Notes: a model not told the origin generated them from the sequence alone. Numbered from the stretch's first letter, positions 4,027 to 33,271 are shown. The stretch: 64,000 nucleotides of DNA from Chitinophaga pinensis (GCA_943373175.1 CALSBM010000007.1:2502-66501), one strand, 5' to 3'. Numbers and translations are program-made.

Positions 4027-5153
4027 TGGCGGGGCTTTACCTTCATATTCCGTTTTGCAGAAAGGCCTGCCATTATTGCGATTTTCATTTTTCTACCTCT
4101 GGACGATTAAGAAAGGAAATCTTAACGTCTATCGTCAAAGAAATGGAAGTTCACGCTCATGCAGCTAATCTATATTCCTTCAAAACAATCTATTTCGGCG
4201 GGGGAACTCCTTCTCTTTTAACTCCTGAAGAGTTGATTTTTTTGTTTGAAGCCATTTATTACCATTTTCAGATTGCGCCTGAAGCAGAAATTACTCTTGA
4301 AGCCAATCCTTCCGATCTTAATAGTGCTTACCTCCGAGAACTGAAACAAACTCCCATTAATAGACTGTCCATCGGCTTGCAAAGTTTTGATGAAGCACAG
4401 CTCCGATGGATGAACCGCGACCATTCAGAATATGAAAGTGTTCAGGCGGTGAAACTTGCTTTTGAAGCAGGTTTCGAATCCCTAAATGTTGACTTAATCT
4501 ATGGTATTCCGGGAACCGACATGGCATACTGGGAAAGGCAGTTAGCCCGTATGAATGAGCTTCCAGTCCATCATCTTTCTGCGTACTGCCTAACCGTGGA
4601 GCCAGGAACTGCTTTGGCACATTTTGTTAAGAAAGGCAATAGTAAGCCAGTGGACGAGGAAATGGCTGCTACTCACTTCGGTATGCTTAAAACATGGGCA
4701 GCGCAACGTGGATGGGAACATTACGAAATGTCTAACTTTTGCCAGCCCGGCCACCAGGCGCGGCACAACAGTGCATACTGGAACCTGCAACCTTATCTGG
4801 GACTTGGCCCTTCTGCTCATAGTTATACCGGAAAAGAACGACACGCTAATGTTGCTTCTAATCCTAAGTATGTCAAGTGCTTGTCGGATAGTTTACAGAG
4901 TTGGGAAACAGAACATCTTTCCGAAACCGACCACTATCACGACTGGCTGCTTACCGGTTTCAGAACAAAAGAGGGCATTCAATTAGTGAACATGCCGGAA
5001 CTTCCAAACATAGTCAAAACTCATTTTGATCAAGAAATCCGGAAGTTGCTTGAGGCCGATAAAATCATCAAAACGCCGGCAGGGTACGTGATACCAAGCC
5101 ACCAATGGTTTACCATGGATCAAGTATTGGAGGCTTTATTTTACGTGGAATAG
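4026..5153 (+). CDS. hemW: radical SAM heme chaperone HemW (HemN-like)
   Basis: N-terminus LYLHIPFCRKACHYCDFH carries the CxxxCxxC radical-SAM motif, and the 375-aa length is typical of HemW. Confidence 0.85.
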   Translation: MAGLYLHIPFCRKACHYCDFHFSTSGRLRKEILTSIVKEMEVHAHAANLYSFKTIYFGGGTPSLLTPEELIFLFEAIYYHFQIAPEAEITLEANPSDLNSAYLRELKQTPINRLSIGLQSFDEAQLRWMNRDHSEYESVQAVKLAFEAGFESLNVDLIYGIPGTDMAYWERQLARMNELPVHHLSAYCLTVEPGTALAHFVKKGNSKPVDEEMAATHFGMLKTWAAQRGWEHYEMSNFCQPGHQARHNSAYWNLQPYLGLGPSAHSYTGKERHANVASNPKYVKCLSDSLQSWETEHLSETDHYHDWLLTGFRTKEGIQLVNMPELPNIVKTHFDQEIRKLLEADKIIKTPAGYVIPSHQWFTMDQVLEALFYVE

Positions 5154-5211
5154 CCCTAAGTAGGGGAAAAGCTTAGCAACTAAAGGGTGGAGGAAGGAAG
5201 GTCAGAAGAAT

Positions 5212-5231
5212 TAGCCGCCCCTTCGGGGCGG
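5212..5231 (-). terminator. GC-rich hairpin downstream (minus-strand sense) of the tRNA-Leu pair
   Basis: gccgcccc-ttcg-gggcggc forms a perfect 8-bp stem. On the minus strand it is followed by TAATTCTTCT. Confidence 0.4.
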
Positions 5232-5237
5232 CATCAG

Positions 5238-5321
<84 letters not shown>

Positions 5322-5330
5322 TATCTTCTG

Positions 5331-5412
5331 TACCCAGGGCCGGGCTCGAACCGGCACGACTTGCGTCACAGGTGTTTGAGACCAGCGCGTCTACCAATTC
5401 CGCCACCTGGGC
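5331..5412 (-). tRNA. tRNA-Leu (anticodon CAA), class II
   Basis: The reverse complement has D-arm GCGGAATTGGTAGACGC, anticodon loop CTCAAAC (CAA), variable-arm hairpin GAC-gcaa-GTC and T-arm GCCGG-TTCGAGC-CCGGC. The anticodon stem has one mismatch and the acceptor stem has a G1-U72 wobble. Confidence 0.7.
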
Positions 5413-5467
5413 TAAGCGGTTGCAAAAGTAAAGGTAAAATCCGCTTCACCAAACAAAGCGATTAAAT

Positions 5468-7420
5468 TTGTGGTTCAGTTTCACAAAACCTCTCATGTCT
5501 TCCTTATACTGCCCTAGCCTTACTGATTACAAACGTTTCTCCACTCGCGTGGTACAAATTGGCGATGTTGCCATGGGAGGGTCAAACCCCATTGTAGTTC
5601 AGTCGATGACTACTACTGATACCATGGACACAGAAGCAACCGTGGCTCAGTCGATACGGTTGATAGAAGCCGGTTGCGAAATCGTTCGTATTACTGCTCC
5701 GAGCCTGAAGGAAGCTGAAAATCTAGCGAACATCAAGCGCGAGCTGAAAAACAGAGGTTACCATGTTCCGCTTGTTGCCGATATCCACTTTACTCCTAAT
5801 GCTGCTGAAGTGGCTGCCAGAATCGTGGAGAAAGTGCGCATCAATCCAGGCAATTTTGTGGATAAGAAGAAGTTCGAACAAATCGATTATACCGAATCGT
5901 CTTACGAAGCTGAACTCGCTCGCATTAGAAAGAAGTTCATCCCTTTGGTGAAAATCTGCAAGGAATACGGCACTGCCATGCGCATCGGCACTAACCACGG
6001 CTCCCTTTCCGATCGAATTATGAGCCGCTATGGCGATACGCCTCTGGGCATGGTTGAATCGGCGATGGAGTTCCTCCGCATAGCACGAGAATTGGACTAT
6101 CATCAAATTGTACTTTCCATGAAGGCCAGTAATCCTCAGGTAATGGTGCAAGCTTACCGAATGCTGGTGAGCACCATGATGCAAAACAACATGGATTATC
6201 CGTTGCACCTTGGCGTTACTGAAGCCGGCGATGGCGAAGATGGCCGCATCAAATCAGCCGTTGGAATCGGAACTTTGTTGGAAGATGGCTTAGGCGATAC
6301 CGTTCGGGTGTCCCTCACCGAAGAACCAGAATTCGAAATTCCGGTAGCCCGGGCTTTAATTGATCGTTACAGCCAGCGTAAAGCTTCAAGACCAATTCCT
6401 GAACTTAGAAACCCTCATGACTTCCTTCATTACTCAAAAAGAGCAACGCATGAAGTCCTCAACTTCGGAGGCAAACATGTTCCTCCTGTGGTTGCTGATT
6501 TAAGTGGAAGAAGTTTAGACTACAACACCCTGAATGAGATCGGCTATCATTATGATGAACCGTCCGATAAATGGCATCTGGCTGATCAAACTGCAGATTA
6601 TGTCTTCACTCGCCAATTACCTGAATTCCGCAACTGGCCAACCACGCTGGGCGTTTTAGTGCCTTTCAAAGAATGGAAGCAGGGAATCGACCGTTGTTAT
6701 CCGGTTTTAACTGCAAGTGAATACCAGTCCGCAACCAACGCGGGAGTTGCGTTTCTACAGATTAGTTTACCAGAACTAACCGAAGAGTTGATTGAAATGA
6801 TTCGCAGCGATAAAAATCTGGTGCTGGTAATTGCTACCGACAACGCACATGCGATGCCCGAAATGCGCCGACTTTATCTGGAACTGCTGCATTATGGACT
6901 AACTAATCCTTCCATTGTTCATCGTACATACCAAGAATTGAATCAGGAACTGACGCAGCTCGCAGCTTCAACCGATGCTGGAGCACTTTTCTTAGACGGA
7001 TTCGGGGAAGGAATTTGGATTGGTAACGAGGATTTACATCCTTTAAACTCGTTCAATAGCCTCGCATTTGGCATTCTTCAAGCTACTCGTCTTAGAATTT
7101 CGAAGACAGAATATATTGCTTGCCCATCTTGCGGAAGAACTCTTTTTGATTTACAGGAAACAACTGCCAAAATCCGCAAAAGAACCAGCCACCTAAAAGG
7201 AGTAAAAATTGGCATTATGGGTTGCATTGTTAACGGTCCCGGCGAAATGGCCGATGCCGATTATGGCTATGTGGGCTCCGGTCAAGGAAAAATTACCCTA
7301 TACAAAGGCAAGGAAATAGTTAAACGAAACATTCCATCGTCAGGAGCAGTTGATGCTCTGGTTGAATTAATCCGCCATCATGGAGATTGGATTGAGCCTA
7401 CAGCTAACCCTTTCGGTTAA
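5468..7420 (+). CDS. ispG: 4-hydroxy-3-methylbut-2-enyl diphosphate synthase IspG (long Bacteroidota-type form with insert domain)
   Basis: VVQIGDVAMGGSNPIVVQSMTTTDT motif is characteristic of IspG. The C-terminal Cys cluster CPSCGRT...GCIVNGPGE is also present. The true start may be the Met at 5495. Confidence 0.9.
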   Translation: MWFSFTKPLMSSLYCPSLTDYKRFSTRVVQIGDVAMGGSNPIVVQSMTTTDTMDTEATVAQSIRLIEAGCEIVRITAPSLKEAENLANIKRELKNRGYHVPLVADIHFTPNAAEVAARIVEKVRINPGNFVDKKKFEQIDYTESSYEAELARIRKKFIPLVKICKEYGTAMRIGTNHGSLSDRIMSRYGDTPLGMVESAMEFLRIARELDYHQIVLSMKASNPQVMVQAYRMLVSTMMQNNMDYPLHLGVTEAGDGEDGRIKSAVGIGTLLEDGLGDTVRVSLTEEPEFEIPVARALIDRYSQRKASRPIPELRNPHDFLHYSKRATHEVLNFGGKHVPPVVADLSGRSLDYNTLNEIGYHYDEPSDKWHLADQTADYVFTRQLPEFRNWPTTLGVLVPFKEWKQGIDRCYPVLTASEYQSATNAGVAFLQISLPELTEELIEMIRSDKNLVLVIATDNAHAMPEMRRLYLELLHYGLTNPSIVHRTYQELNQELTQLAASTDAGALFLDGFGEGIWIGNEDLHPLNSFNSLAFGILQATRLRISKTEYIACPSCGRTLFDLQETTAKIRKRTSHLKGVKIGIMGCIVNGPGEMADADYGYVGSGQGKITLYKGKEIVKRNIPSSGAVDALVELIRHHGDWIEPTANPFG

Positions 7421-7458
7421 GAGGCTACCTATTCAGGCTTTCTAACTTTTTCATTGAA

Positions 7459-8763
7459 TTGAAAAAATTGGTCAATACGCTACTGATTCAAATCTCGAAC
7501 GATGAGGTTGTGCTCTCTCCTACCTTAATTATTCCAATAACTGAAACCAATTTCCCATACCAATACTGTAACCTTAGTAATTATAAAAAAATATTCTGGG
7601 AAGTAGAATTAACTGGATATTCAGAAGACACAAGTTGTTTGAAATTAAAAGTATTGAACTATAATGCCATTTTTGATGATAGATTAAAGAAGCAAAGACC
7701 AACGAGAAAAATTGAAAAACTTGAATTCGAAAAATTTGACTGGAGAAGTCTTGAAGCACTTTTAACCTCCTATAAAGCAGCGCAGTTAGATTCCTTCGTA
7801 GAAAAAAATCCAATAGCCTTCAACCATAGAACAGCATCTGGAAGTCATGTTGAATTTATAGAACCCCTTTCTCCAAAAAAAACTGAAAGCACTTCTTCCA
7901 CTCCTTCAAATGAAATAATAGAAATTTCTAAACAATGGAGAATAAAATTTGAGGATGCTTTTTTCGAATTGGGGTATATCCGATTTATAAAAGAATTTCC
8001 AGAGATAAAAAAAGCAGTTATAATAAAAATATTCAACGATAATTTATTGCCTGAATTCGAATTGATAAAACCGTGGTTTATAAAGAAGTTAGGCAAGACT
8101 TTTCAAGTTGAAATAAAAGCAAAAATTAATTCTGAACAACTCATTGATTACGATGCGACTTCCTCAATAATTAGCGCTATCAATCCTAATTTATTGGAAA
8201 ATATTCGTCAACAACGGATATGGGGGTTACAAAAAACACCTAATAAAACCGAAATTGACCAATCGCTATTCACTTCCGATGAAATATTTGAACATGCGAT
8301 TGATAAGGGTGGCAATTTGTTTCAACAAAATGAATTAGAAGTGCTAGAAATCCTATCACAATTAAATTCAGTCCGGAATAAAAGGCAATTAACCTATTTG
8401 GCGAGTCAGCTTCAAAATAATCATTCCAAACTTAGATTCACTTTAAATCCACATTTTGGATTTGTCTTTCACGTTATTGGAAAAACTCAACACCATTTCA
8501 TTTGGGAGCTTTTAAATAGTCATGCCACTTATGTGTGGAGCAGACCCAAAAATGAAATATCAGAAATAAATTTGTTTAAAGAATTAGAAGCAATCATCAA
8601 TTATATCCGATTAGAAGGAAGAGATACCTATAAAAGTGCTTACAGACAGTTCAAGAGAGACGAAAACTGGATTTTTAATTCCATTGATCACGAAGATGCA
8701 AACTCATCATTTAAAGATGGTTTTGTAAAATGGAAATATAAACTGGAAGAAAAACTGGTTTAA
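7459..8763 (+). CDS. hypothetical protein (low-GC orphan gene, no recognisable family)
   Basis: Uninterrupted 434-aa ORF at roughly 32-35% GC, against about 45% for its neighbours. The product is K/E/N/I-rich with no signal peptide or TM segment, and no motif I can assign. Confidence 0.5.
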   Translation: MKKLVNTLLIQISNDEVVLSPTLIIPITETNFPYQYCNLSNYKKIFWEVELTGYSEDTSCLKLKVLNYNAIFDDRLKKQRPTRKIEKLEFEKFDWRSLEALLTSYKAAQLDSFVEKNPIAFNHRTASGSHVEFIEPLSPKKTESTSSTPSNEIIEISKQWRIKFEDAFFELGYIRFIKEFPEIKKAVIIKIFNDNLLPEFELIKPWFIKKLGKTFQVEIKAKINSEQLIDYDATSSIISAINPNLLENIRQQRIWGLQKTPNKTEIDQSLFTSDEIFEHAIDKGGNLFQQNELEVLEILSQLNSVRNKRQLTYLASQLQNNHSKLRFTLNPHFGFVFHVIGKTQHHFIWELLNSHATYVWSRPKNEISEINLFKELEAIINYIRLEGRDTYKSAYRQFKRDENWIFNSIDHEDANSSFKDGFVKWKYKLEEKLV

Positions 8764-8799
8764 TGTTCTTCTTGTAGAAAAAGGTTAAACCCTTCTACC

Positions 8800-9183
8800 C
8801 TAATTAAACTTATTCTGTTTGAATTCTATTCCTGAAAATAAATACAGCATGATGATTCTACTGAAACGGAGAGAAAATGGAGAGAACAGTATCAACGCTG
8901 AAATAACAATAGCTAAATAGACCCAAACATCCGGGTCGTGAAGCAAAAAAAAGGTTCCGAAACCAAAAATGATACTTATTGCTACGCTGAAAGCATAGCT
9001 AACATACATAGCTCCCCAAAACAACCCAGGTTCAACTTCGTAATGCTGTCCACATACTGGACAATCAGAATTCATAATATGTCGCTTTGAAAACTGACTC
9101 ATAGGATAAGCATACACCTTGCCTTGCCTGCAACGAGGACAACGCCCTTCCGCGAGTGCACGAAAGTAACTAACAGTAGCCAA
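8800..9183 (-). CDS. DUF983-like membrane protein (CxxC...CxxC zinc-ribbon plus two TM helices)
   Basis: N-terminal CPRCRQG...CPVCGQ zinc ribbon followed by two hydrophobic helices. This family is commonly found at the distal end of caa3 oxidase clusters. Confidence 0.6.
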   Translation of the reverse strand: MATVSYFRALAEGRCPRCRQGKVYAYPMSQFSKRHIMNSDCPVCGQHYEVEPGLFWGAMYVSYAFSVAISIIFGFGTFFLLHDPDVWVYLAIVISALILFSPFSLRFSRIIMLYLFSGIEFKQNKFN

Positions 9184-9184
9184 C

Positions 9185-9415
9185 TTAACCTTGTTTACGC
9201 TTTCGCGTTTTAAAATAGTAAACTCCGCCTACTGTTCCTACAGCCAAGTATGGCAGTGAGAGCAAGTATAGGATTCCTTTATTTAAACCGTTTCCAACGG
9301 TTTTGCTTTCCTGCTGCTTACGGGAAGCTTCCAAAGCAGTCTTACACATCGGACATTGTGCTGAAACAACCAATGAACCGACAGAAAACAACAAGAGAAA
9401 GGCGAACTTCTTCAT
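9185..9415 (-). CDS. small secreted/membrane protein with CPMC motif
   Basis: 76-aa protein with signal peptide MKKFAFLLLFSVGSLVVSAQ, then CPMCK, one C-terminal TM helix and a basic tail. It is translationally packed between the DUF420 and DUF983 genes. Confidence 0.5.
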   Translation of the reverse strand: MKKFAFLLLFSVGSLVVSAQCPMCKTALEASRKQQESKTVGNGLNKGILYLLSLPYLAVGTVGGVYYFKTRKRKQG

Positions 9416-9416
9416 T

Positions 9417-9953
9417 TTAAAATTGGTAGTAAGGTGAAATCATGAGATAAACAACTACTCCGGTTACTGTAACATATAACCAAATAGGAAAAGAAAAGCG
9501 AACGAGTTTTTTGTGTTTAGCCACTTTTCCGGTTAATCCGTAATAAAACGATATCAACACCATGGGCAACACAATCGCTGCAAGCAAAATATGAGTAAGT
9601 AAAATAATTAGATAAACAGGCCTGATGGGATTGTCTTCCGGAAATCTTGTTTCTACTCCAAAAGCATGAAAGGTGACATAAGACAAGAGAAATAAGGAAC
9701 TGAGTGCAAAGGCTATGAGATTTAGCTTCTTATGTAAATCAATGTTTTTGCTTTTTATGGCCATAAGGGAAGCTATTAACAACAAGGAAGTTGACCCATT
9801 CAGTATTGCATTAAGCTTAGGAAGAAAGCGAACGAAGTCTGGCATTACTTCCGCTTTTGGCATCATAAACAGTACTACAACCGCTACAAACACTAACATC
9901 GAAACGATGTATATCCACCTTAGTGCGACTGTTTCCTTCACTGATTGTATCAT
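9417..9953 (-). CDS. DUF420-like four-TM membrane protein of cytochrome oxidase clusters
   Basis: 178-aa protein with four TM helices. It overlaps the SCO1 gene by 4 bp, and its position after the SCO gene is typical of caa3 loci. Confidence 0.6.
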   Translation of the reverse strand: MIQSVKETVALRWIYIVSMLVFVAVVVLFMMPKAEVMPDFVRFLPKLNAILNGSTSLLLIASLMAIKSKNIDLHKKLNLIAFALSSLFLLSYVTFHAFGVETRFPEDNPIRPVYLIILLTHILLAAIVLPMVLISFYYGLTGKVAKHKKLVRFSFPIWLYVTVTGVVVYLMISPYYQF

Positions 9954-10654
9954 TTCGAAAGCTTTCTATTTTCAACTGCCGAGGCAATGTCTTTGTTTTC
10001 GTATTCCTTCTTCAATAAACGAATAGCACCCATTAAATCATCGACTTCACGGTTATTGGTGCCATCAAAAATTCCTCGAATTCTTCGGTCTGCATCGATG
10101 AGAAGCATTTTCTCAGAATGAATAAATTGACCATCCTGCTGAGCATCGGGTGAAACCTGAGAGAGGAATTGCTGCTGAATCACTGAATATAAACTATCGC
10201 GACTGCCTGTAAGAAAACTCCACTTGCCCTTTACGGCCTTGTTCTCTATGCTATAATGCTTCAGTACCGAAGGGAAGTCCGTTTCAGGATCCACAGTCAT
10301 GGAAACCATCTGTACCCTATCGTTTTTTATGAAACTATCCTGAATTCGCTTCATCTGCTTTGACATATCAATGCAGATAGTTTTACAGGAAGTAAACATG
10401 AAATTAACTACGGTAAAGCGACCATCCAGCATACGCTCAGTCTGTATCAGACTGTCCTGATCTAAAAAGGTGAACGGCCCTACTTGGTGATAAATAGTAT
10501 CAACCACCGTACGGCCGTTAACCATATTTTCAAAGGGAATTTTCTCTCCGTAAATCGGAAGCTTTACATAATGGTTTGTACCGAAACCCACATAGAGCCA
10601 ATACAGCAGAGGGGGTAAAGCCAATATCAGAAAGAGAACAAGTCCTTTTTTCAA
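9950..10654 (-). CDS. SCO1/SenC family copper chaperone
   Basis: N-terminal TM anchor plus a thioredoxin-like domain. The FMFTSCKTIC sequence carries the CxxxC copper-binding motif. Confidence 0.8.
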   Translation of the reverse strand: MKKGLVLFLILALPPLLYWLYVGFGTNHYVKLPIYGEKIPFENMVNGRTVVDTIYHQVGPFTFLDQDSLIQTERMLDGRFTVVNFMFTSCKTICIDMSKQMKRIQDSFIKNDRVQMVSMTVDPETDFPSVLKHYSIENKAVKGKWSFLTGSRDSLYSVIQQQFLSQVSPDAQQDGQFIHSEKMLLIDADRRIRGIFDGTNNREVDDLMGAIRLLKKEYENKDIASAVENRKLSK

Positions 10655-10660
10655 GCTCTT

Positions 10661-10978
10661 TTAATAGCGGATATTCAACCAGTAATTGCTTTCATAAAGC
10701 AATGCTGCTATGATTCCAAGAATGAAAACCAGTGGAACAATAATGCTGTAAATCAGATTGATGCGTTCAAACTTAAGGTGCATGAAATAGGCAACAATGT
10801 AAAATGCCTTAAGCAACGTAAGTACGATGTAAATCACATTCTTGATGGGTTGCGCCATCACACTTTCAGGAATTGCCAGTGCGATGATAAACTCAACCAC
10901 TGTAATAAGGAGAAGTACAAAAAATACTTTCCAGATGCCTTTTATATCGAAACTGCTTTCGTGTTCTGCGTTAGACAT
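10661..10978 (-). CDS. cytochrome c oxidase subunit IV (caa3-type, CoxD/CtaF-like)
   Basis: About 105-aa protein with three TM helices, immediately downstream of coxC. Start taken at MSNAEHES (ATG 10978). Confidence 0.65.
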   Translation of the reverse strand: MSNAEHESSFDIKGIWKVFFVLLLITVVEFIIALAIPESVMAQPIKNVIYIVLTLLKAFYIVAYFMHLKFERINLIYSIIVPLVFILGIIAALLYESNYWLNIRY

Positions 10979-26672: not shown

Positions 26673-28316
26673 TTGAATCGCGCTGCTTTTTCTCTCCGAA
26701 TAAAGGAAGCATTAACCGGATTGGCTGTTGCGGGTAGTCTGGCCTTTACCGATCAATACTTCGAGTTATCGAAGCAATTGGAAATTTTCGCCTCCATGTA
26801 CAAGGAAGTGAACACTTACTATGTCGATGAAATTGAACCTGCTCGTTTCATGCGTACCGGAATTGACGCTATGCTTAAAAGCTTAGACCCTTATACCGAT
26901 TATATCAGCGAATCAGAAATTGAAGATTTTCGGTTTATGACTACCGGGCAATATGGAGGAATTGGCGCATTAGTTTCTAATCGTGACAGTGTAATTGTTA
27001 TAACCGACCCTTATGAAGGGTTTCCGGCACAAAAGGCCGGAATAATGGCCGGTGATTGTTTGTTAGAAGTTGACGATAAAAAAGTTGGAGGAAAATCAAC
27101 TGAAGACATTTCTAAACTGCTCAAAGGTCAACCGAAGACTTCCGTTAAACTCAAGATTAGGCGTGGAAATGAATCTCCTAAAGAGCTAACGATAACCCGA
27201 GAAGAAATTTCGGTAAAGAGTGTTCCATATTACGAAATGCTCAATCAAGAAACCGGCTACATTAAATACACCGGTTTTAAAAGCCAAAGTGGACAAGAAG
27301 TAGCCGATGCCATCAAAGCACTGAAAGCCAAGCAAATGAAGAAATTGATTCTGGATTTGCGGGACAATCCCGGTGGTTCATTAGATGAAGCCATCCGAAT
27401 TTCAGGCTTTTTCATCCCAAAAGGCAGCTTAGTAGTAGATACTAAAGGCAAATACAAGGATTGGGACAAATCCTACAAAACTTCGGAGGCTCCATTAGAC
27501 ACTCAAATCCCGTTGATTGTGTTGATTAATGAAAGCTCCGCATCCGCATCAGAAATTGTATCAGGTGTTGTACAAGACTATGACAGGGCAGTTGTGATGG
27601 GAGTAAAATCGTTTGGTAAAGGATTGGTTCAAACAGTTAGACCATTAACCTACAACACTCAGTTAAAAGTAACAACCGCCAAATACTACACCCCGAGTGG
27701 ACGGTGCGTTCAATCAATCAATTATTCCCAAAAAGGGAAAACAACCCGACCTGACTCACTCAAAGTTGCCTTCAAAACCAAAAATGGACGAACTGTTTAC
27801 GACGGCGGCGGAGTTTCACCTGATTTAGAAGTGAAAGAGCTGGAAAGCCCTTTAGTCTTGAATGCGCTTTTTGAGAAACGGCTATTGTTTGATTTTGCTA
27901 CTAATTATCGTCTTCAAAATCCAACGTTAATCGGAGGAAAAGACTTCCAAATTTCGAACGGACTTTTCCAGGAATTCAAGGCATTTCTTAAAGAACGCAA
28001 GTTCGATTACCTAACTGAAAGCGAAAAAATGTTGGAACAGTTTAAGAATAAAGCGAAAAAAGAACATTACTACGAAGCAGTTAAGGACGAATTTGAAAAA
28101 TTAACGACAACTTACCACCACGACAAAAGTCAGGACGTTGATAAAAACCGACCCGTAATTGAACAAGCATTAAGAGAAGAAATTATCTCCCGATACCTGT
28201 TTCAAAAAGGAAGGATTGAAGCCTCATTATCCACCGATGTCCAGGTTAAGAAAGCGATGGAAGTACTTGGTCAACCAGACATGTACCAAAAATATCTCAA
28301 AAGAACGCAGCCGTGA
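26673..28316 (+). CDS. S41 family C-terminal processing peptidase (PDZ domain)
   Basis: 547-aa protein with a PDZ region (GIMAGDCLLEVDDKKV) and an S41 catalytic region (LINESSASASEIVSG...GVKSFGKG). Confidence 0.85.
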   Translation: MNRAAFSLRIKEALTGLAVAGSLAFTDQYFELSKQLEIFASMYKEVNTYYVDEIEPARFMRTGIDAMLKSLDPYTDYISESEIEDFRFMTTGQYGGIGALVSNRDSVIVITDPYEGFPAQKAGIMAGDCLLEVDDKKVGGKSTEDISKLLKGQPKTSVKLKIRRGNESPKELTITREEISVKSVPYYEMLNQETGYIKYTGFKSQSGQEVADAIKALKAKQMKKLILDLRDNPGGSLDEAIRISGFFIPKGSLVVDTKGKYKDWDKSYKTSEAPLDTQIPLIVLINESSASASEIVSGVVQDYDRAVVMGVKSFGKGLVQTVRPLTYNTQLKVTTAKYYTPSGRCVQSINYSQKGKTTRPDSLKVAFKTKNGRTVYDGGGVSPDLEVKELESPLVLNALFEKRLLFDFATNYRLQNPTLIGGKDFQISNGLFQEFKAFLKERKFDYLTESEKMLEQFKNKAKKEHYYEAVKDEFEKLTTTYHHDKSQDVDKNRPVIEQALREEIISRYLFQKGRIEASLSTDVQVKKAMEVLGQPDMYQKYLKRTQP

Positions 28317-29140
28317 TTTTAACCTATGACCTGATAATCCTGCTTGTAGCAGGGCTATCTGCCGGATTTCTTGCAGGATTATTAGGCGTAGGAGGAGGAA
28401 TTATCTTTGTGCCGGTGCTTTCTTGGTATCTCGGAAAAACTGGCGTTGATAGCCACGTTGAAGTAATTATGGTAATAGCTAACTCGCTTGCTTTAGCGTG
28501 TATTATGGGCATCAGTGGAACACTCAGCCAAAAGAAAAAAGGCTATTTCTTCCCTGCTCCTACTTTAGCACTTGGATTAGGAGGTGCTGTAACCTCAGTT
28601 GCAACAGCTTATCTTATTTCTCATACCCAAGTTTACGATAAACGGCTATTCGGAATTGTTTTCTCTATTCTGTTGATACCCTTGATTGTAAAAATGTTTC
28701 GGGCTAAAGAGAGTGAAGATTCAAACGAAACTTCTACTAATAGTTCCAGCAATTTTCCTCGTTGGAGGCTGCTATTAATCGGATTACTTACCGGCGTTGT
28801 TTCCGCCTTGAGTGGGTTAGGTGGAGGCGTAATCATGATTCCGTTGCTAAATTCTTGGGCTAAATTCAGCATGCGTAAATCGGGTGCTATATCCTTATCG
28901 AGCATTGTCATACTTTCATTTTTCATGAGTTTGTATTACATGACAACCAGTGCCACGGAAGTGCCCAAGATGCCTCTCACATTGGGCTACATTCACCTTC
29001 CAGTATTACTTCCTTTAGCGTTAGGAATCACCGTATCGGCACCCTTTGGTGTTAAGATGGCACATAAAGTTAATGGGCACACCATCAAGTGGATTTTTGT
29101 AGCGCTTTTCACTGTGATACTCATCCAAATGAATTGGTGA
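28313..29140 (+). CDS. sulfite exporter TauE/SafE family membrane protein
   Basis: Duplicated four-TM halves, each with a GxGGGxxxxP-like motif (GVGGGIIFVPVL, GLGGGVIMIPLL). Confidence 0.75.
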   Translation: MILTYDLIILLVAGLSAGFLAGLLGVGGGIIFVPVLSWYLGKTGVDSHVEVIMVIANSLALACIMGISGTLSQKKKGYFFPAPTLALGLGGAVTSVATAYLISHTQVYDKRLFGIVFSILLIPLIVKMFRAKESEDSNETSTNSSSNFPRWRLLLIGLLTGVVSALSGLGGGVIMIPLLNSWAKFSMRKSGAISLSSIVILSFFMSLYYMTTSATEVPKMPLTLGYIHLPVLLPLALGITVSAPFGVKMAHKVNGHTIKWIFVALFTVILIQMNW

Positions 29141-29548
29141 TATACTGCTAACTATTCACTTCTGATAATATCCCTCCGAGCAGCCTCAGCCTCAATACTA
29201 AAAAGTCCCCAAACGACTATCTCGATGGGGACTTTTGCATTGCGTAGTGTTGGATGGTACTTGGTATTGAGTGTGAAGCTAGAGAATCTTCGTCGATGCT
29301 GACACAGGTTAATTTCTAGTTTCCTTTGATGAAATGGGTCGATTCCGTAATGCCTTACATTTCGATTTTACCCTCCTTACCCAAAATAGTTAACTCATAT
29401 TGCTGATTTTAGCCATCTTTATCACATTTTTAAAGCATCTGCTATGATTACAAATTTTGCAACTAACTAACTATTTTCTTTGTCTTTTATGCTGTAATAA
29501 TCTTTGGTCGGAGCTGTGTATTAGTTTCTATCTATTGCCATTAATTAC

Positions 29549-29911
29549 TTATTTAAAATTATCTATTATTCTAGATTTGTCTTCATTTTCTTTATCGTTC
29601 TTATGATACAATTCAATGAATGTAATTTTTTGTTCGTCAGGAAAGTACGCATAAATTAATCTTAGACCTGAATTTACTCCTCTTCCTTTTAATGCCTTAC
29701 AAGCAATTTTTTTAACCTTAATGACACACGTTTCTAAACCCAAATTATCAATACGGAAACTAAAAGGAGGACTTTCACCAGGTTCGTCATTCAGGTCTAA
29801 CTTCACCACTTCCAAATCATCGTTGAGCGTTCTGTATTTTTTTAAAAGGTTCTTCAAATCCTTTTTAAATGTTGAAAGTTCATAAAATTCAATATTGTTC
29901 ATCATCTTCAT
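29549..29911 (-). CDS. RelE/ParE-superfamily type II toxin-like protein
   Basis: 120-aa protein. The core IKVKKIACKALKGRGVNSGLRLIYAYFPDEQKITFIELYHKNDK follows the RelE/ParE pattern: basic beta-strand, G(K/R)(R)G..R, hydrophobic Y.K, then a basic C-terminal region. It overlaps the upstream antitoxin-like gene by 23 bp. Confidence 0.55.
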   Translation of the reverse strand: MKMMNNIEFYELSTFKKDLKNLLKKYRTLNDDLEVVKLDLNDEPGESPPFSFRIDNLGLETCVIKVKKIACKALKGRGVNSGLRLIYAYFPDEQKITFIELYHKNDKENEDKSRIIDNFK

Positions 29912-30689
29912 AAACTCTAATTGAATAAGGTGGTCTTCTGTAAAAAGCCAATTCGTAATTTATTTCTTCACCTTCTTTTGATGCCTTCCAAGGTTTATCA
30001 CCGTGCGAATAGTTGCTGAGCATAGCCGCACTCCAATCACTCATTTGTTCCATAACCCTGTCAATAATATCTTTCTCGCTTGCCTTTAACTCAGTTAAAT
30101 CAGCTTTCTCTAAAGGCAAATAACGAGTTTGAGGATAACCATGATATTCGGTTTTTACTCTTTGCAACTGCCCTATTTCAATCATTTGACCAATAATCAT
30201 ATCAAAATTTTGCGGAACTGGCCCATAAGGTAATTTGCGATATGTAGCACCTGTTAAATGCTCCTCATACAATTCGTAATAATTAAAATCCGAAAAATAC
30301 AGTAACTTATATAGAACCGTTTCACCGACATTAGGCTTACCTGCACAGCGTTCAAGGATATACAATAAGACATTTTTGAACTTGCCGATTTGTAGAGTAG
30401 GCACAGAAATACGTTCTTCCACTTTCTTGGCCTTATTTTCTTCTTTGCCTTCAACCTCTTGATTTGCCGAGAAATTCTTAGACATAAAATCATCCAATGA
30501 AAATTTCAAAATCATAGCCAGTTTTTGCAGTTCAAGAATATCGACGCTTCTATTTCCTAACTCTATTTGAGCCAAAGACGGTCGGGAAATTTTGACACTT
30601 TTAGCCAAATCTTCTTGCGACAACCCCTTCATTTTACGAAGTTCGGTTAGCCTCTGACCTATTTGCTTTTGCGACAATTGCATGTTCAT
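29889..30689 (-). CDS. HTH-XRE DNA-binding protein fused to a DUF4065 (Panacea/SocA-like) antitoxin-type domain
   Basis: N-terminus QKQIGQRLTELRKMKGLSQEDLAKSVKISRPSLAQIELGNRSVDILELQKLA is a Cro/C1-type HTH. The C-terminal half, LYKLLYFSDFNYYELYEEHLTGATYRKLPYGPVPQNFD, matches the conserved core of DUF4065. Confidence 0.65.
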   Translation of the reverse strand: MNMQLSQKQIGQRLTELRKMKGLSQEDLAKSVKISRPSLAQIELGNRSVDILELQKLAMILKFSLDDFMSKNFSANQEVEGKEENKAKKVEERISVPTLQIGKFKNVLLYILERCAGKPNVGETVLYKLLYFSDFNYYELYEEHLTGATYRKLPYGPVPQNFDMIIGQMIEIGQLQRVKTEYHGYPQTRYLPLEKADLTELKASEKDIIDRVMEQMSDWSAAMLSNYSHGDKPWKASKEGEEINYELAFYRRPPYSIRVYEDDEQY

Positions 30690-31197
30690 ATCAATTTAAG
30701 TTTCGCTGTTCAACGGAACAAAGATAAGCAATGTTTCAAATTCAAACATACTTCTGTTTCCATACAAAACACTGCCTACACTTGCCAAATGCAATTGAAC
30801 TCAAAGAAAAACTGTTTAAAACCCTTTCTACCGGAAGAAACAAACAAAACATCCAACATACAGCCCGGCAAAAATGGACTCAACAAATGACACAAGCAGC
30901 CTCCGTAGTAAATGATTGCAACCGACGACAGGCAAGAACACCAACCGCCAACATACCACCGAAAATCTAAAAAGCCTCAAAAGACCCTTAGACTTCTTGG
31001 AGAGGATATAAAAAAGTTGATTATTTTGGAGACAGAAACAGGTAAAGAAGAAACACTACCCCAAAATGTGGTTTTCAACCTTAGTACTCACCTCCCATGA
31101 AAGCAAACTACACGCAGTGCGTGAAATCGACTACAGGAGCATGTATCGCGCAAGACTGCGTATATTAATCGTTATGTGCAATTTATAATCCAGACAA

Positions 31198-32109
31198 ATG
31201 AGCGGAGTTGTACAACCAGACTTCAGACAAGGAAATAGGTCTGAATATTTAGCGCAATATCTTCTTTCTTACTTGGGGACAACCGTTTTTGTTCCAAGAC
31301 AAGAAGACGTTGGCATCGACTTTAATTGTGCAATTTCTGTCGCTAGCGGACACGTTGAAGAAATCAAAGAACAATTTCATGTTCAAATAAAATCTAATAT
31401 CACGGACGATATAGAATTTGGTGAGGTTGCAAAGACAGGTAAAAATCAAAAGACCAAATGGAAACAATATGAACTTGAATGGCTCTTTAATCTAGACAAT
31501 CCTCTTTTCATTGGCATTGTAAATAAAGACGAAGGTAGCCTTGAGCTTTATTCAACCTCTTTCATGTGGTATAATTACTGGAACAGAAAATTCTTAACGG
31601 TCAAATTTCTTCCAAATCATCCTAGCGGTGACATGGCAGAAATACACGTTCAAGAAGACATCGATATTTCTGAATGGGCTAGTGACTTAGAAACTACGGA
31701 GCCCAAAGTGAAAACAGTTGTACCAATGGGACCACCTATTATTAAACTGACAAAAGAAAATATAAGACAATCGGAAGTACTGCCAACTCTTAAAAACCTA
31801 TTCAGACTTGCAATACAAATAGAACAAGCTAATATCACTTATAAAAAACTTAGACTGCCCTATTTTAACTGGCTTCATAAGATCTCGACAAATAGCAGTT
31901 TCGTTGGTGGTTTTTTTTACGCAATCGATAAAGTGCTAATTGAAGAACAACGACTATATCAATCTTTAACTCCATTACTAATTTCGCTTGCACTTCTTTA
32001 TAAGCAGACCAACGACCAAAGATTCGAGATTATTATGAACGCACTCAACTTAACTCCTCCGCAGTTCATTCCTCCTGAAGTTAAAGTAGCTCTTGGACTT
32101 CCTGCTTGA
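31198..32109 (+). CDS. hypothetical protein with N-terminal PD-(D/E)xK (DUF4365-like restriction-endonuclease fold) motif
   Basis: 303-aa protein. The N-terminus NRSEYLAQYLLSYLGTTVFVPRQEDVGIDFNCAI...EEIKEQFHVQIKS contains E...D-x-GID...Q-x-K, the typical DUF4365 / PD-(D/E)xK arrangement. The C-terminal roughly 180 aa are unassigned. The gene lies at low GC and is transcribed divergently from the TA pair. Confidence 0.5.
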   Translation: MSGVVQPDFRQGNRSEYLAQYLLSYLGTTVFVPRQEDVGIDFNCAISVASGHVEEIKEQFHVQIKSNITDDIEFGEVAKTGKNQKTKWKQYELEWLFNLDNPLFIGIVNKDEGSLELYSTSFMWYNYWNRKFLTVKFLPNHPSGDMAEIHVQEDIDISEWASDLETTEPKVKTVVPMGPPIIKLTKENIRQSEVLPTLKNLFRLAIQIEQANITYKKLRLPYFNWLHKISTNSSFVGGFFYAIDKVLIEEQRLYQSLTPLLISLALLYKQTNDQRFEIIMNALNLTPPQFIPPEVKVALGLPA

Positions 32110-32264
32110 CGTTAAACTGCACATAACAGCACCTACTTGCATTTTTTTGCGGGTTAGCGCTCAAATGCGTAAATTGACATAGCAAAAAACTGCAAGTAGC
32201 TCCAAAACGTTATGTCCATTCCTAAAACGACAACTACTGCAACTTCAACAATAATGTAAAGACA

Positions 32265-32354
32265 ATGGAAAGAAGAAAATTTATCATCACTACTGGAGGG
32301 TTTGTTTCAGCAACAATGTCTCGTCCTAAAAAAAGTTTACGAGTTAATTTCTAA
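32265..32354 (+). pseudogene. decayed N-terminal fragment of a Tat-secreted Gfo/Idh/MocA-type oxidoreductase
   Basis: A 30-codon ORF encodes MERRKFIITTGGFVSATMSRPKKSLRVNF. This matches the twin-arginine signal (RRxFI) followed by the K(K)xLRVGIIG Rossmann start seen in periplasmic Gfo/Idh/MocA proteins. It stops right there, and the downstream frames are scrambled. Confidence 0.45.
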
Positions 32355-32638
32355 ATAGTGTTGGCAGCCACATGGTACAAAGGATAAAGCTCTGGAAATT
32401 CTTTGTCGGTTCTAAAGTAGCGGTTCGGGGATGTGCTAAAGGGGTCTATAAGCTCCGGATTATCCAGCGATTTTCCCACCTCAGTGAATGCGTGTGCTTC
32501 TTAATTCAATGTCCATCTTGACTATTAGCCCAAGAAGAAGTATTTACCTATTTGTTTAGCCAGGTAAAAATGCAGCCTCCACAACCACCACGTTACTCCC
32601 TCGTCCGAGAGGGCTTCGGTTCAACAAATTCTACCCAA

Positions 32639-33271
32639 CTACCTATACAATTCCGGGAAATACTCTCGAAGAATAGACAATGGATTTTGATTGGTATGAT
32701 GGACAGGAGCAGTTATCCTTAACCGCTTTGCAGCTTCGCGGTGTTGTATCGAATCTTCAATAAAAAGACAATCTTCTGGATTGAGGTTTTGTTCGTTTAA
32801 CAAAAGCTGAAAAAATGCTTCCTCCGGCTTTCTGGTTCCACATTCATAACTCAGATAAACTTTAGTGAACATTTCCTGAAAGTTGAATATTCCCCTTTTT
32901 TCTAAACCCTGATAAATAGTCTGAATGTGCAATACATTGGTGTTAGAAAAAAGAAAGCAAGGAATATCATTCGCTCTTAATGGAGCAAGAAGTGCCAGCC
33001 TTTCATCTGGTAAATCAAGCAGAATGCTATCCCATGCCTCCCTTATTTGAGCATCTGTAAGGGCAAGACCGGATAGCCTTCTTATTTCTTGATAAAACTG
33101 GTTTTCAGAAATTTTGCCTGTTTCTAATAAATCAAAAACTACCTGTTGTTCCGCCTGGCTGTAACTGTTGCCAAAATCACGGTAGCCTAACGCTTCAAAT
33201 GCCTTACGGGGTGCCTGATAATCAATATTGATTAAAACTCCTCCGAAATCAAAAATTACTGCTTTCATCAA
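32639..33271 (-). CDS. HAD family hydrolase (subfamily IA)
   Basis: Motif I VIFDFGGVL is followed by downstream HAD motifs. Overlaps the SDR gene by 4 bp. Confidence 0.8.
   Translation of the reverse strand: MMKAVIFDFGGVLINIDYQAPRKAFEALGYRDFGNSYSQAEQQVVFDLLETGKISENQFYQEIRRLSGLALTDAQIREAWDSILLDLPDERLALLAPLRANDIPCFLFSNTNVLHIQTIYQGLEKRGIFNFQEMFTKVYLSYECGTRKPEEAFFQLLLNEQNLNPEDCLFIEDSIQHREAAKRLRITAPVHHTNQNPLSILREYFPELYR

Follow-up and report, generated by a model that had tools for sequence, protein, structure and literature searches.

A probable composite insertion in a Chitinophaga pinensis genome carrying a putative Panacea toxin-antitoxin pair and a gene for a predicted DREN-type nuclease

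A block at positions 29141-32638 of a 64,000-nucleotide (nt) stretch of a Chitinophaga pinensis genome (GCA_943373175.1 CALSBM010000007.1:2502-66501), hereafter the window, lies between two convergent core genes. Open reading frame (ORF) calling on the window identified three ORFs in the block: two on the minus strand, encoding proteins of 120 and 266 amino acids (aa), and one on the plus strand, encoding a protein of 303 aa (Table 1). The two minus-strand genes form what is predicted to be a type II toxin-antitoxin pair of the Panacea (PanA/PanT) class, and the 303-aa protein belongs to a family whose N-terminal part has a nuclease fold. We consider it probable that the block is a composite of two unrelated units that move separately. 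Related loci in other genomes and metagenomes are referred to by their L numbers.

Table 1. Features of the block and its immediate surroundings (window positions)
Feature	Position	Strand	Basis
TauE gene terminator-like hairpin	29205-29236	+	GTCCCCA...TGGGGAC followed by TTTT, read from the sequence
Toxin-antitoxin block (promoter region, antitoxin, toxin, third-gene remnant)	29306-30794	-	nt identity to other loci
DUF2188 pseudogene	29332-29541	-	tblastn with the 78-aa protein of L023; several in-frame stops, frameshift near 29408
Toxin of the RelE/ParE superfamily, 120 aa, most similar to HigB-2	29549-29911	-	structural model, profile, conserved residues
Antitoxin, 266 aa, PanA type	29889-30689	-	XRE-type helix-turn-helix at the N-terminus, Panacea domain at the C-terminus
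Putative promoter/operator of the toxin-antitoxin operon	30690-30794	-	about 105 nt conserved with L023/L024/L026
Non-coding block in the A+C-rich spacer	30838-30946	.	76.6% identity to L023 2438-2547
Upstream inverted-repeat arm GTTATGTGCAATTTA	31171-31185	+	12 nt before the ATG of the 303-aa gene
303-aa protein, DUF4365/DREN-type PD-(D/E)xK domain at the N-terminus (about residues 1-130)	31198-32109	+	Pfam, Foldseek, motif
Downstream inverted-repeat arm TAAACTGCACATAAC	32113-32127	+	3 nt beyond the stop codon
Imperfect hairpin, two 18-nt arms, one mismatch, 31-nt loop	32133-32199	+	RNA fold, z -3.8
29-aa ORF (MERRKFIITTGG...), earlier described as a Tat-signal stump	32265-32354	+	no Pfam match

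An inserted block between two convergent core genes

The block is flanked on its left by a TauE/SafE gene (28313-29140, plus strand) and on its right by an operon encoding HAD, SDR and biotinyl-carrier proteins on the minus strand. Two lineages of uncultured Bacteroidota supply the closest relatives of the TauE protein, at 82-84% identity. In the first lineage (L011 and L034-L039), the TauE and HAD genes are convergent neighbours separated by 363-371 bp, and in the second (L040-L042) they are convergent with a gap of 3 bp. The block is absent from both. Synteny with these relatives is conserved on both sides of the site (cbb3 oxidase genes, S41 peptidase, aspartyl-tRNA synthetase), with the flanking core genes 70-73% identical at the nucleotide level to those of the nearest relatives, and DNA homology to the window ends exactly at the TauE stop codon (29140) and the HAD stop codon (32639). 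A preliminary description of this locus had placed an AT-rich island between these genes, and both the flanks and the empty orthologous site in two lineages bear this out.

The G+C content of the block is 0.370 compared with 0.424 for the 64-kb window, and the lowest value over 400 nt is 0.297, over the toxin gene. The block is AT-richer than its surroundings, but the drop from 45% to 28-36% given in the preliminary description was overstated. The lowest-GC 3.5-kb stretch of the window is not the block; it sits near position 7500. With empty orthologous sites and a deviating G+C content, the block has the properties of a genomic island, and it is inserted where the 3' ends of two convergent core genes face each other. 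When aligned to the island, the spacers of the relatives showed no homology to it, so the ends of the insertion cannot be located with greater precision than 29141-32638.

Conversely, the block could be ancestral and have been deleted in the relatives. Just two related lineages could be examined, both at about 72% DNA identity, which leaves some room for such a history. However, both lack the block despite having different spacers (3 bp and about 370 bp), the toxin-antitoxin block is far closer to its counterparts in distant genomes than the flanks are to those of the relatives, and the G+C content of the block is lower. We regard deletion in the relatives as highly improbable.

No gene, oxidoreductase or other, occurs at the TauE-HAD site in relatives of the two lineages, and the earlier proposal that the insertion took place where an oxidoreductase gene has decayed has no support. 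The 29-aa ORF near the right border had been read as the stump of a Tat-signal Gfo/Idh/MocA gene. It has no Pfam match even at E ≤ 10, read-through frames included, and probably does not represent a decayed gene of this site. The terminator-like hairpin that follows the TauE gene is either host DNA or lies at the insertion's left edge.

No tRNA, integrase or Rfam element was found within or adjoining the block. The Rfam search was conducted at the gathering threshold for the whole window and at E ≤ 1 for 29100-32700, and neither yielded a match in the block. The integrase half of the earlier statement that integrase and transposase genes are lacking is in agreement with this result. A scan for sigma-70 promoters and terminators returned counts equal to those in shuffled sequences, with a model that does not cover Bacteroidota promoters.

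The putative toxin-antitoxin operon and its copies

The 266-aa protein consists of an N-terminal XRE-type helix-turn-helix (HTH) domain connected to a C-terminal Panacea domain. HTH_3 is matched at 1.8e-12 over residues 16-68, and SocA_Panacea/DUF4065 (PF13274) at 6.4e-22 over residues 126-235, where the alignment spans positions 1-113 of the 113-position profile with a score of 79.1 bits against a cut-off of 25.7. The antitoxin gene comes first and overlaps the toxin gene by 23 nt. The same 23-nt overlap is found in L023 and L032.

The 120-aa protein was assigned by its structure and family. The AlphaFold2 model (pLDDT, the predicted local distance difference test score, 78.7) has the RelE/ParE (BECR) fold, and a profile search against PDB sequences matched HigB-2 at E 0.009. 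In the alignment to HigB-2, residues R84, Y102 and K104 of the toxin correspond to the catalytic residues R64, Y82 and K84 of VcHigB2, and all three are invariant in 25 homologues. The equivalent of R51 of VcHigB2 falls outside the alignment. Alanine substitution at four residues of VcHigB2, including R64, Y82 and K84, lowers activity by 350- to 3000-fold (PMC5416850). At E ≤ 1e-3 this large family comprises more than 4,300 proteins, many of them at 80-93% identity, and it carries the Joint Genome Institute (JGI) annotation RelE. Distant genes annotated as RelE/ParE were also detected by tblastn on Leptospira plasmids. The earlier recognition of an overlapping HTH-XRE/DUF4065 and RelE-like gene pair is supported by these data, in the antitoxin by Pfam matches above threshold and in the toxin by structure and family evidence.

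Based on the match of R84, Y102 and K104 to the catalytic residues of HigB2 and on their invariance in homologues, an mRNA endonuclease is favoured over a gyrase poison, and the toxin is probably a ribosome-dependent mRNA endonuclease. The same superfamily fold also admits a ParE-like activity against gyrase. However, the best matches in both sequence and structure are to HigB-2, and the arginine, tyrosine and lysine trio of HigB2 and RelE is retained without exception, so that we consider a gyrase poison unlikely.

Despite the similarity in predicted activity, the pair does not constitute a classical higBA operon. VcHigB2 (PF06296; PDB 5JA8 and 5MJE) is a ribosome-dependent RelE-like mRNase, whereas the window toxin is only about 15% identical to it and falls below the Pfam threshold. 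In higBA the toxin gene is upstream, and in the window the order is reversed, with the antitoxin first. In addition, the partner of VcHigB2 is HigA2, while the antitoxin in the window is an HTH-Panacea protein.

We found close copies of the whole toxin-antitoxin block in other genomes. The block is 86-89% identical in nucleotide sequence to L023, L024, L026 and L027, and 78-79% identical to L028-L033. Its G+C content is 0.341, compared with 0.342-0.348 in the loci that carry close copies. In these loci the HTH-Panacea gene precedes the toxin gene in three independent contexts represented by 11 contigs. In L023-L027, one of which is a Flavobacteriales metagenome-assembled genome, the module is beside Kiwa KwaAB and a type I restriction-modification system. 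In L028-L031 it is beside a PLD-helicase-DUF3427 protein, and in L032-L033 beside AbiEii, Fic and an nSTAND3 NTPase. The ratio of nonsynonymous to synonymous substitution rates (dN/dS) is 0.056 for the toxin compared with L023 and 0.083-0.089 for the antitoxin compared with close copies, and thus both genes are under purifying selection. The defence genes that adjoin the module in L023, Kiwa KwaA/KwaB and type I restriction-modification, occupy positions 4689-9847 of that locus, and they also adjoin it in L024, L025 and L027.

The DNA shared with these loci continues about 245 nt past the toxin stop codon. In L023-L025 and L027, an intact gene for a 78-aa DUF2188 protein starts 7 nt after the toxin gene (Pfam 3.1e-21 for the L023 protein). 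The corresponding region of the window holds a DUF2188 pseudogene that the preliminary description had missed. We conclude from the comparison of these sequences that the module came in with three genes, the third of which has since been lost. The decay of the DUF2188 gene here indicates that it is dispensable.

Panacea (DUF4065) has been defined as a domain of antitoxins whose partners are toxins with dozens of unrelated folds, which it binds directly and thereby neutralises (PMC8832971). In that study, HTH N-terminal domains are found in 343 PanAs, complexes of PanA and PanT are described (Kurata et al. 2022, PMC8832971), and there are PanT groups with HHpred matches to HigB-2, RelE, YoeB or ParE, with T14, T28, T58 and T59 among those matching HigB-2, RelE or ParE. 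The pair in the window resembles PanA/PanT in having a complete Panacea domain with an N-terminal HTH, and in its bicistronic arrangement of an antitoxin gene followed by a small overlapping toxin gene. However, its exact family does not occur in the part of the PMC8832971 dataset that was compared, and the HigB-2/RelE-like examples in that part have PanAs with no N-terminal domain, unlike the window antitoxin. The paper also does not discuss the DUF2188 accessory gene of the closest relatives. On domain content and gene order, we classify the pair as a putative member of the described Panacea (PanA/PanT) type II toxin-antitoxin class. The preliminary description had considered the arrangement unassignable to any characterised system; for the pair, the Panacea class (PMC8832971) provides such an assignment.

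The divergent genes are separated by a 508-bp spacer (30690-31197) with an A+C content of 0.628, the most extreme of 1270 windows of the same size in the 64 kb. It had been described as a strand-biased leader. While its coordinates and its bias are as reported, it is not one element: the promoter region of the pair takes up its first 105 nt, and a repeat arm of the 303-aa gene lies within its last 27 nt. As read from the alignment, the conserved promoter region has a box, TATCTTTG (30719-30726), that agrees with the Bacteroidota -7 consensus and may function as such. The counterpart in L023 of the non-coding block further into the spacer is also a non-coding stretch, upstream of the same module. 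This block has no Rfam match, and its ORFs have neither a Pfam match nor protein-level conservation. The small ORFs of the 508-bp spacer and a 43-aa ORF upstream of the pair in L024 and L026 also show no protein-level conservation.

Given these features, the first unit would be a type II toxin-antitoxin operon of the Panacea class that extends over the minus-strand block listed in Table 1. The antitoxin probably represses its own operon through the XRE HTH and probably neutralises the toxin by direct binding through the Panacea domain. The 23-nt overlap suggests that translation of the two genes is coupled. When freed, for example by loss or degradation of the antitoxin, the toxin would most likely cleave mRNA in the ribosomal A site, and growth would stop.

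The 303-aa protein, its family and its neighbourhoods

A word-indexed search with the 303-aa protein identified 12 relatives. From the alignment of these we conducted a hidden Markov model (HMM) search that recovered 1130 clusters at E ≤ 1e-3, with 636 at E ≤ 1e-10. The members are nearly all about 300 aa in length and match end to end. The family is real and sizeable, but it is unnamed and uncharacterised. Among 64 diverse members, DUF4365 is the sole Pfam family matched, by 14 at E ≤ 0.01 with a best value of 3.8e-6. Searches of the 303-aa protein against PADLOC, NCBIfam, PHROGs and PDB sequences returned nothing usable, and neither a scan of viral contigs nor tblastn against plasmids identified relatives.

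The structural model of the protein contains an N-terminal PD-(D/E)xK fold with a D...Q-x-K catalytic motif. In a Foldseek search of the PDB, nine of the ten top matches are DREN-APAZ chains of SPARDA, with probabilities of 0.92-1.0 over about 110-129 columns. Neither E16 nor D41 varies within the family, and the VQxKS motif is kept; in the window protein this motif is VQIKS and contains Q63 and K65. Structure and family evidence together support the earlier assignment of a DUF4365-type PD-(D/E)xK domain to this divergently encoded protein.

DUF4365 is the effector nuclease of SPARDA, and in TmuRE the catalytic residues are Q62 and K64 (PMC10810196). The DREN domains of TmuRE and NbaSPARDA (PMC10810196, PMC12205087) have the same fold as the 303-aa protein, with the Q-x-K motif at the same position (Q62/K64 compared with Q63/K65). 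However, SPARDA possesses an APAZ domain and an adjacent short Argonaute gene, whereas the 303-aa protein has no APAZ domain and there is no Argonaute gene nearby or in the loci of its homologues. The SPARDA protein is also longer (about 410-450 aa compared with 303 aa), the C-terminal halves are unrelated, and the 303-aa gene stands alone. With neither APAZ nor Argonaute, the 303-aa gene is not a SPARDA gene.

A second point of comparison is Divona, a validated single-gene anti-phage cassette from the chromosomal integron of V. cholerae that has a DUF4365 N-terminus and a crr6 domain (bioRxiv 10.1101/2024.07.02.601686). The likeness lies in a single small gene in which an N-terminal DUF4365-type nuclease is fused to another domain, and which is cassette-like and mobile. 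None of the 64 family members matches the crr6 domain of Divona (PF08847), which sets the family apart from Divona as described.

The genomic neighbourhoods of the family are diverse. In Ferruginibacter, a homologue with 81% identity is alone between the rpsF-rpsR-rplI operon and a glycosyltransferase gene. In L002-L004 the homologue precedes a PIN toxin-antitoxin pair, and in L005-L009 it heads a compact set of four genes, of which the remaining three encode proteins that match nothing in Pfam or PADLOC. More distant members adjoin a GmrSD/SspE-like protein, a type I specificity subunit and a DUF4379 zinc-finger protein. In L022 (40-4970), a truncated 48-aa remnant of the family directly follows a Lamassu-type set of SIR2, LmuC-like and LmuB-like genes. 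The gene is single-copy wherever it is seen, with 1-5 contigs per cluster. These neighbourhoods argue for the 303-aa protein as a resident of defence islands, alone or with varying partners.

Two of these loci have further features. The four genes of L005 (6466-10832) encode proteins of 301, 278, 195 and 661 aa with gaps of 1-48 nt, and the homologue among them is 70% identical to the window protein. The four-gene set of L005-L009 may be an unrecognised multi-gene system. In L022 the remnant precedes a pair of ORFs of 87 and 100 aa that, by eye, has the look of an AbrB/RelE-type toxin-antitoxin pair.

The preliminary description grouped the antitoxin, the toxin and the 303-aa protein as one three-component arrangement, an antitoxin with an effector. 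Such a system, in which the HTH antitoxin would control the nuclease in defence or addiction, is suggested by the divergent orientation of adjacent genes across a shared 508-bp spacer and by the occurrence of both kinds of unit in defence islands. However, the pair and the relatives of the 303-aa gene occur apart elsewhere. All three independent contexts of the pair, on 11 contigs, lack the 303-aa gene, and the loci of the 303-aa family that were examined all lack a Panacea gene. There is none beside the relatives in 14 further distinct loci as far as the contigs reach; six of the 14 loci are cut by a contig end or truncated. The two units match non-overlapping sets of related loci, and the conserved promoter block of the toxin-antitoxin operon stops 400 bp short of the 303-aa gene. 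A single three-component system is therefore very unlikely.

Repeats around the 303-aa gene and the origin of the block

The 303-aa gene is bracketed by a pair of inverted repeats. The 15-nt arms match at 14 of 15 positions, and a perfect run of at least 10 nt between the flanks was seen in only 9 of 2000 shuffles. Two other loci contain a comparable bracket. In L002, where the homologue is 62% identical, GTTGGGTGCAATTAA and TTAACTGCACCCAAC are located at 7949-7963 and 8922-8936, and in L043, where it is 45% identical, GTTAGGGGCAAGGCA and TGCCCTGCCCCTAAC are located at about 56-70 and 988-1002. Across the window, L002 and L043 the internal bases of the arms co-vary while the outer ends, GTT and AAC, are constant, and all three share the same A-versus-G asymmetry at position 11 of the arm. 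The upstream arm is also present in L014, and degenerate versions occur in L013 and L001; distant members have no bracket. A search for the arm pattern elsewhere in the 64-kb window matched only the two arms.

Downstream of the second arm there is an imperfect hairpin that is probably the terminator of the 303-aa gene, or else forms the inner part of the stem in an attC-like site. After the hairpin, GTTATGT occurs a third time, as a direct copy, at 32208-32214, and ACATAAC is at 32121-32127. When 32117-32218 is folded as single-stranded DNA, ACATAAC and GTTATGT close the stem, with a z score of -3.4 for the top strand and -5.5 for the bottom strand, and none of 200 shuffles was as stable. This arrangement resembles the attC sites of integrons and of clusters of attC sites lacking integron-integrases (CALIN) in that an imperfect palindrome of about 95 nt directly follows the ORF and is closed by complementary 7-mers of the form ...AAC/GTT..., and the GTT... 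sequence recurs at the 5' boundary of the 303-aa gene. It differs from them in that each 7-mer in the window departs once from the RYYYAAC/GTTRRRY consensus, that there is no integrase or second convincing site, and that the complementarity runs outward over 15 nt, which is not a defining feature of attC. A second attC-like candidate, upstream of the 303-aa gene, was dismissed because of its folding energy. In L002, long imperfect palindromes occur at 10725-10853 and 9817-10150 between small same-strand genes downstream of the 303-aa homologue; one of these spacer palindromes is closed by CCGCTAAC...GTTAGCGG, and the layout is similar to that of a cassette array.

Based on these features, the 303-aa gene might be an integron-type cassette, or a comparable site-specific one, moved by a tyrosine recombinase acting in trans. 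Its boundary would be the GTTATGT at 31171 and its attC-like site 32121-32214. This possibility draws on the co-varying arms on either side of the gene in the window, L002 and L043, the perfect GTTRRRY/RYYYAAC in L002 (GTTGGGT/ACCCAAC), the direct GTTATGT copy beyond the hairpin with the stable fold that it closes, and the short gap of 12 nt from arm to ATG. It is also consistent with the homologues in L002 and L005 being part of same-strand arrays of small unrelated genes, with the long AAC...GTT palindrome in another spacer of L002, and with the precedent of Divona as a single-gene DUF4365 defence cassette in an integron of V. cholerae. However, the syntenic flanks contain no integrase and the Rfam scan is empty. 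In the window each 7-mer violates the consensus once, the upstream candidate (31095-31180) is unstructured (z -0.4), there is no clear closing GTTGGGT after the hairpins of L002, and the bracket is absent from more distant members of the family. In addition, the Divona preprint (bioRxiv 10.1101/2024.07.02.601686) implies that Bacteroidota belong to the clades in which integrons had not been found before, and our own attC-like scan has many false positives and is too unspecific as evidence. A cassette of this type is doubtful.

The arms could instead be the terminal inverted repeats of a minimal element similar to an insertion sequence (IS), with the 303-aa protein as its transposase or as a homing nuclease. 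They hug the ORF and co-vary with the protein lineage, the left and right ends differ consistently, and the gene is solitary in unrelated contexts. Against such an element, the gene is single-copy wherever it is seen, there is no further copy of the arm in 64 kb, no target-site duplication is visible, and members lacking the bracket dominate the wider family. This explanation is barely credible, and we rate the cassette, doubtful as it is, above it. Another possible role for the bracket is in long-range pairing between the 5' and 3' ends of the mRNA or as a regulatory site. A more ambitious proposal, by analogy to the integrons of Vibrio, is that the 303-aa gene represents a self-contained mobile cassette whose co-varying arms and folded attC-like site would be recombined in trans by a recombinase of integron-like or other site-specific type. 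It would bring a new single-gene DREN defence to Bacteroidota, reported to be without integrons, and the neighbouring pair would stabilise the cassette as such pairs do in Vibrio; we consider this somewhat more doubtful than the cassette alone.

Returning to the block as a whole, we favour, with a probability of roughly 0.75, a composite insertion whose two units are unrelated and mobile independently of each other. The first is the toxin-antitoxin operon described above. The second, from 31171 to 32127 or to 32214 on the plus strand, would consist of a single gene, whose 303-aa product is predicted to be a DREN nuclease with its catalytic residues intact. The C-terminal half probably has a sensing or regulatory function. 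The analogy to SPARDA and Divona suggests that the protein is most likely a stand-alone, activation-dependent nuclease directed against phages or plasmids.

Several observations weigh against parts of this interpretation. The sequence matches of the toxin and of the 303-aa protein are below the curated cut-offs. The toxin scores 14.6 bits against a threshold of 27 for PF06296 and 13.8 against 27.9 for TIGR02385, and the 303-aa protein scores 16.8 bits against 24.3 for DUF4365 (PF14280), with an E value of 0.0075. The model of the 303-aa protein is of moderate confidence (pLDDT 69.5) and was built from a 10-sequence alignment, and the C-terminal 170 residues match no recognised domain. No model in PADLOC-DB v2 is matched by the toxin or the 303-aa protein; the antitoxin is matched through its HTH only, and 2 of the 64 members of the 303-aa family weakly match the candidate PDC-M02A. 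The association of this family with defence islands comes from a handful of short metagenomic contigs. As to the route of entry, flanking direct repeats of the whole block, an integrase and a tRNA target were not found. Finally, one genome alone carries both units side by side, and for this reason functional cross-talk between them stays conceivable.

Two further features of the window lie outside the block. A 434-aa ORF with no Pfam match (7459-8763, plus strand) sits between an ispG-like gene and a gene for a small membrane protein, with a G+C content of 0.31-0.32 over 1 kb that is lower than that of the block, and it may be another inserted orphan gene. Two tandem tRNA-Leu genes with anticodons CAG and CAA are located 8 nt apart at 5237-5412 on the minus strand.

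What had the appearance of a new three-part system resolves into two units that can each be explained, and a false call of a new defence system is averted. The pair provides a clean natural case of a Panacea antitoxin with a toxin of the HigB-2/RelE fold; at about 90% protein identity it has spread through Bacteroidota, and it is found in defence islands. The second unit belongs to a family of about 300 aa with at least 1,100 clusters that appears to reuse the DREN nuclease of SPARDA as a stand-alone gene, and it is a reasonable candidate for single-gene defence. Of the leads, the repeat bracket alone merits pursuit: if it were a recombination site, it would be a sign of cassette-type gene mobility in a phylum where this has not been described.

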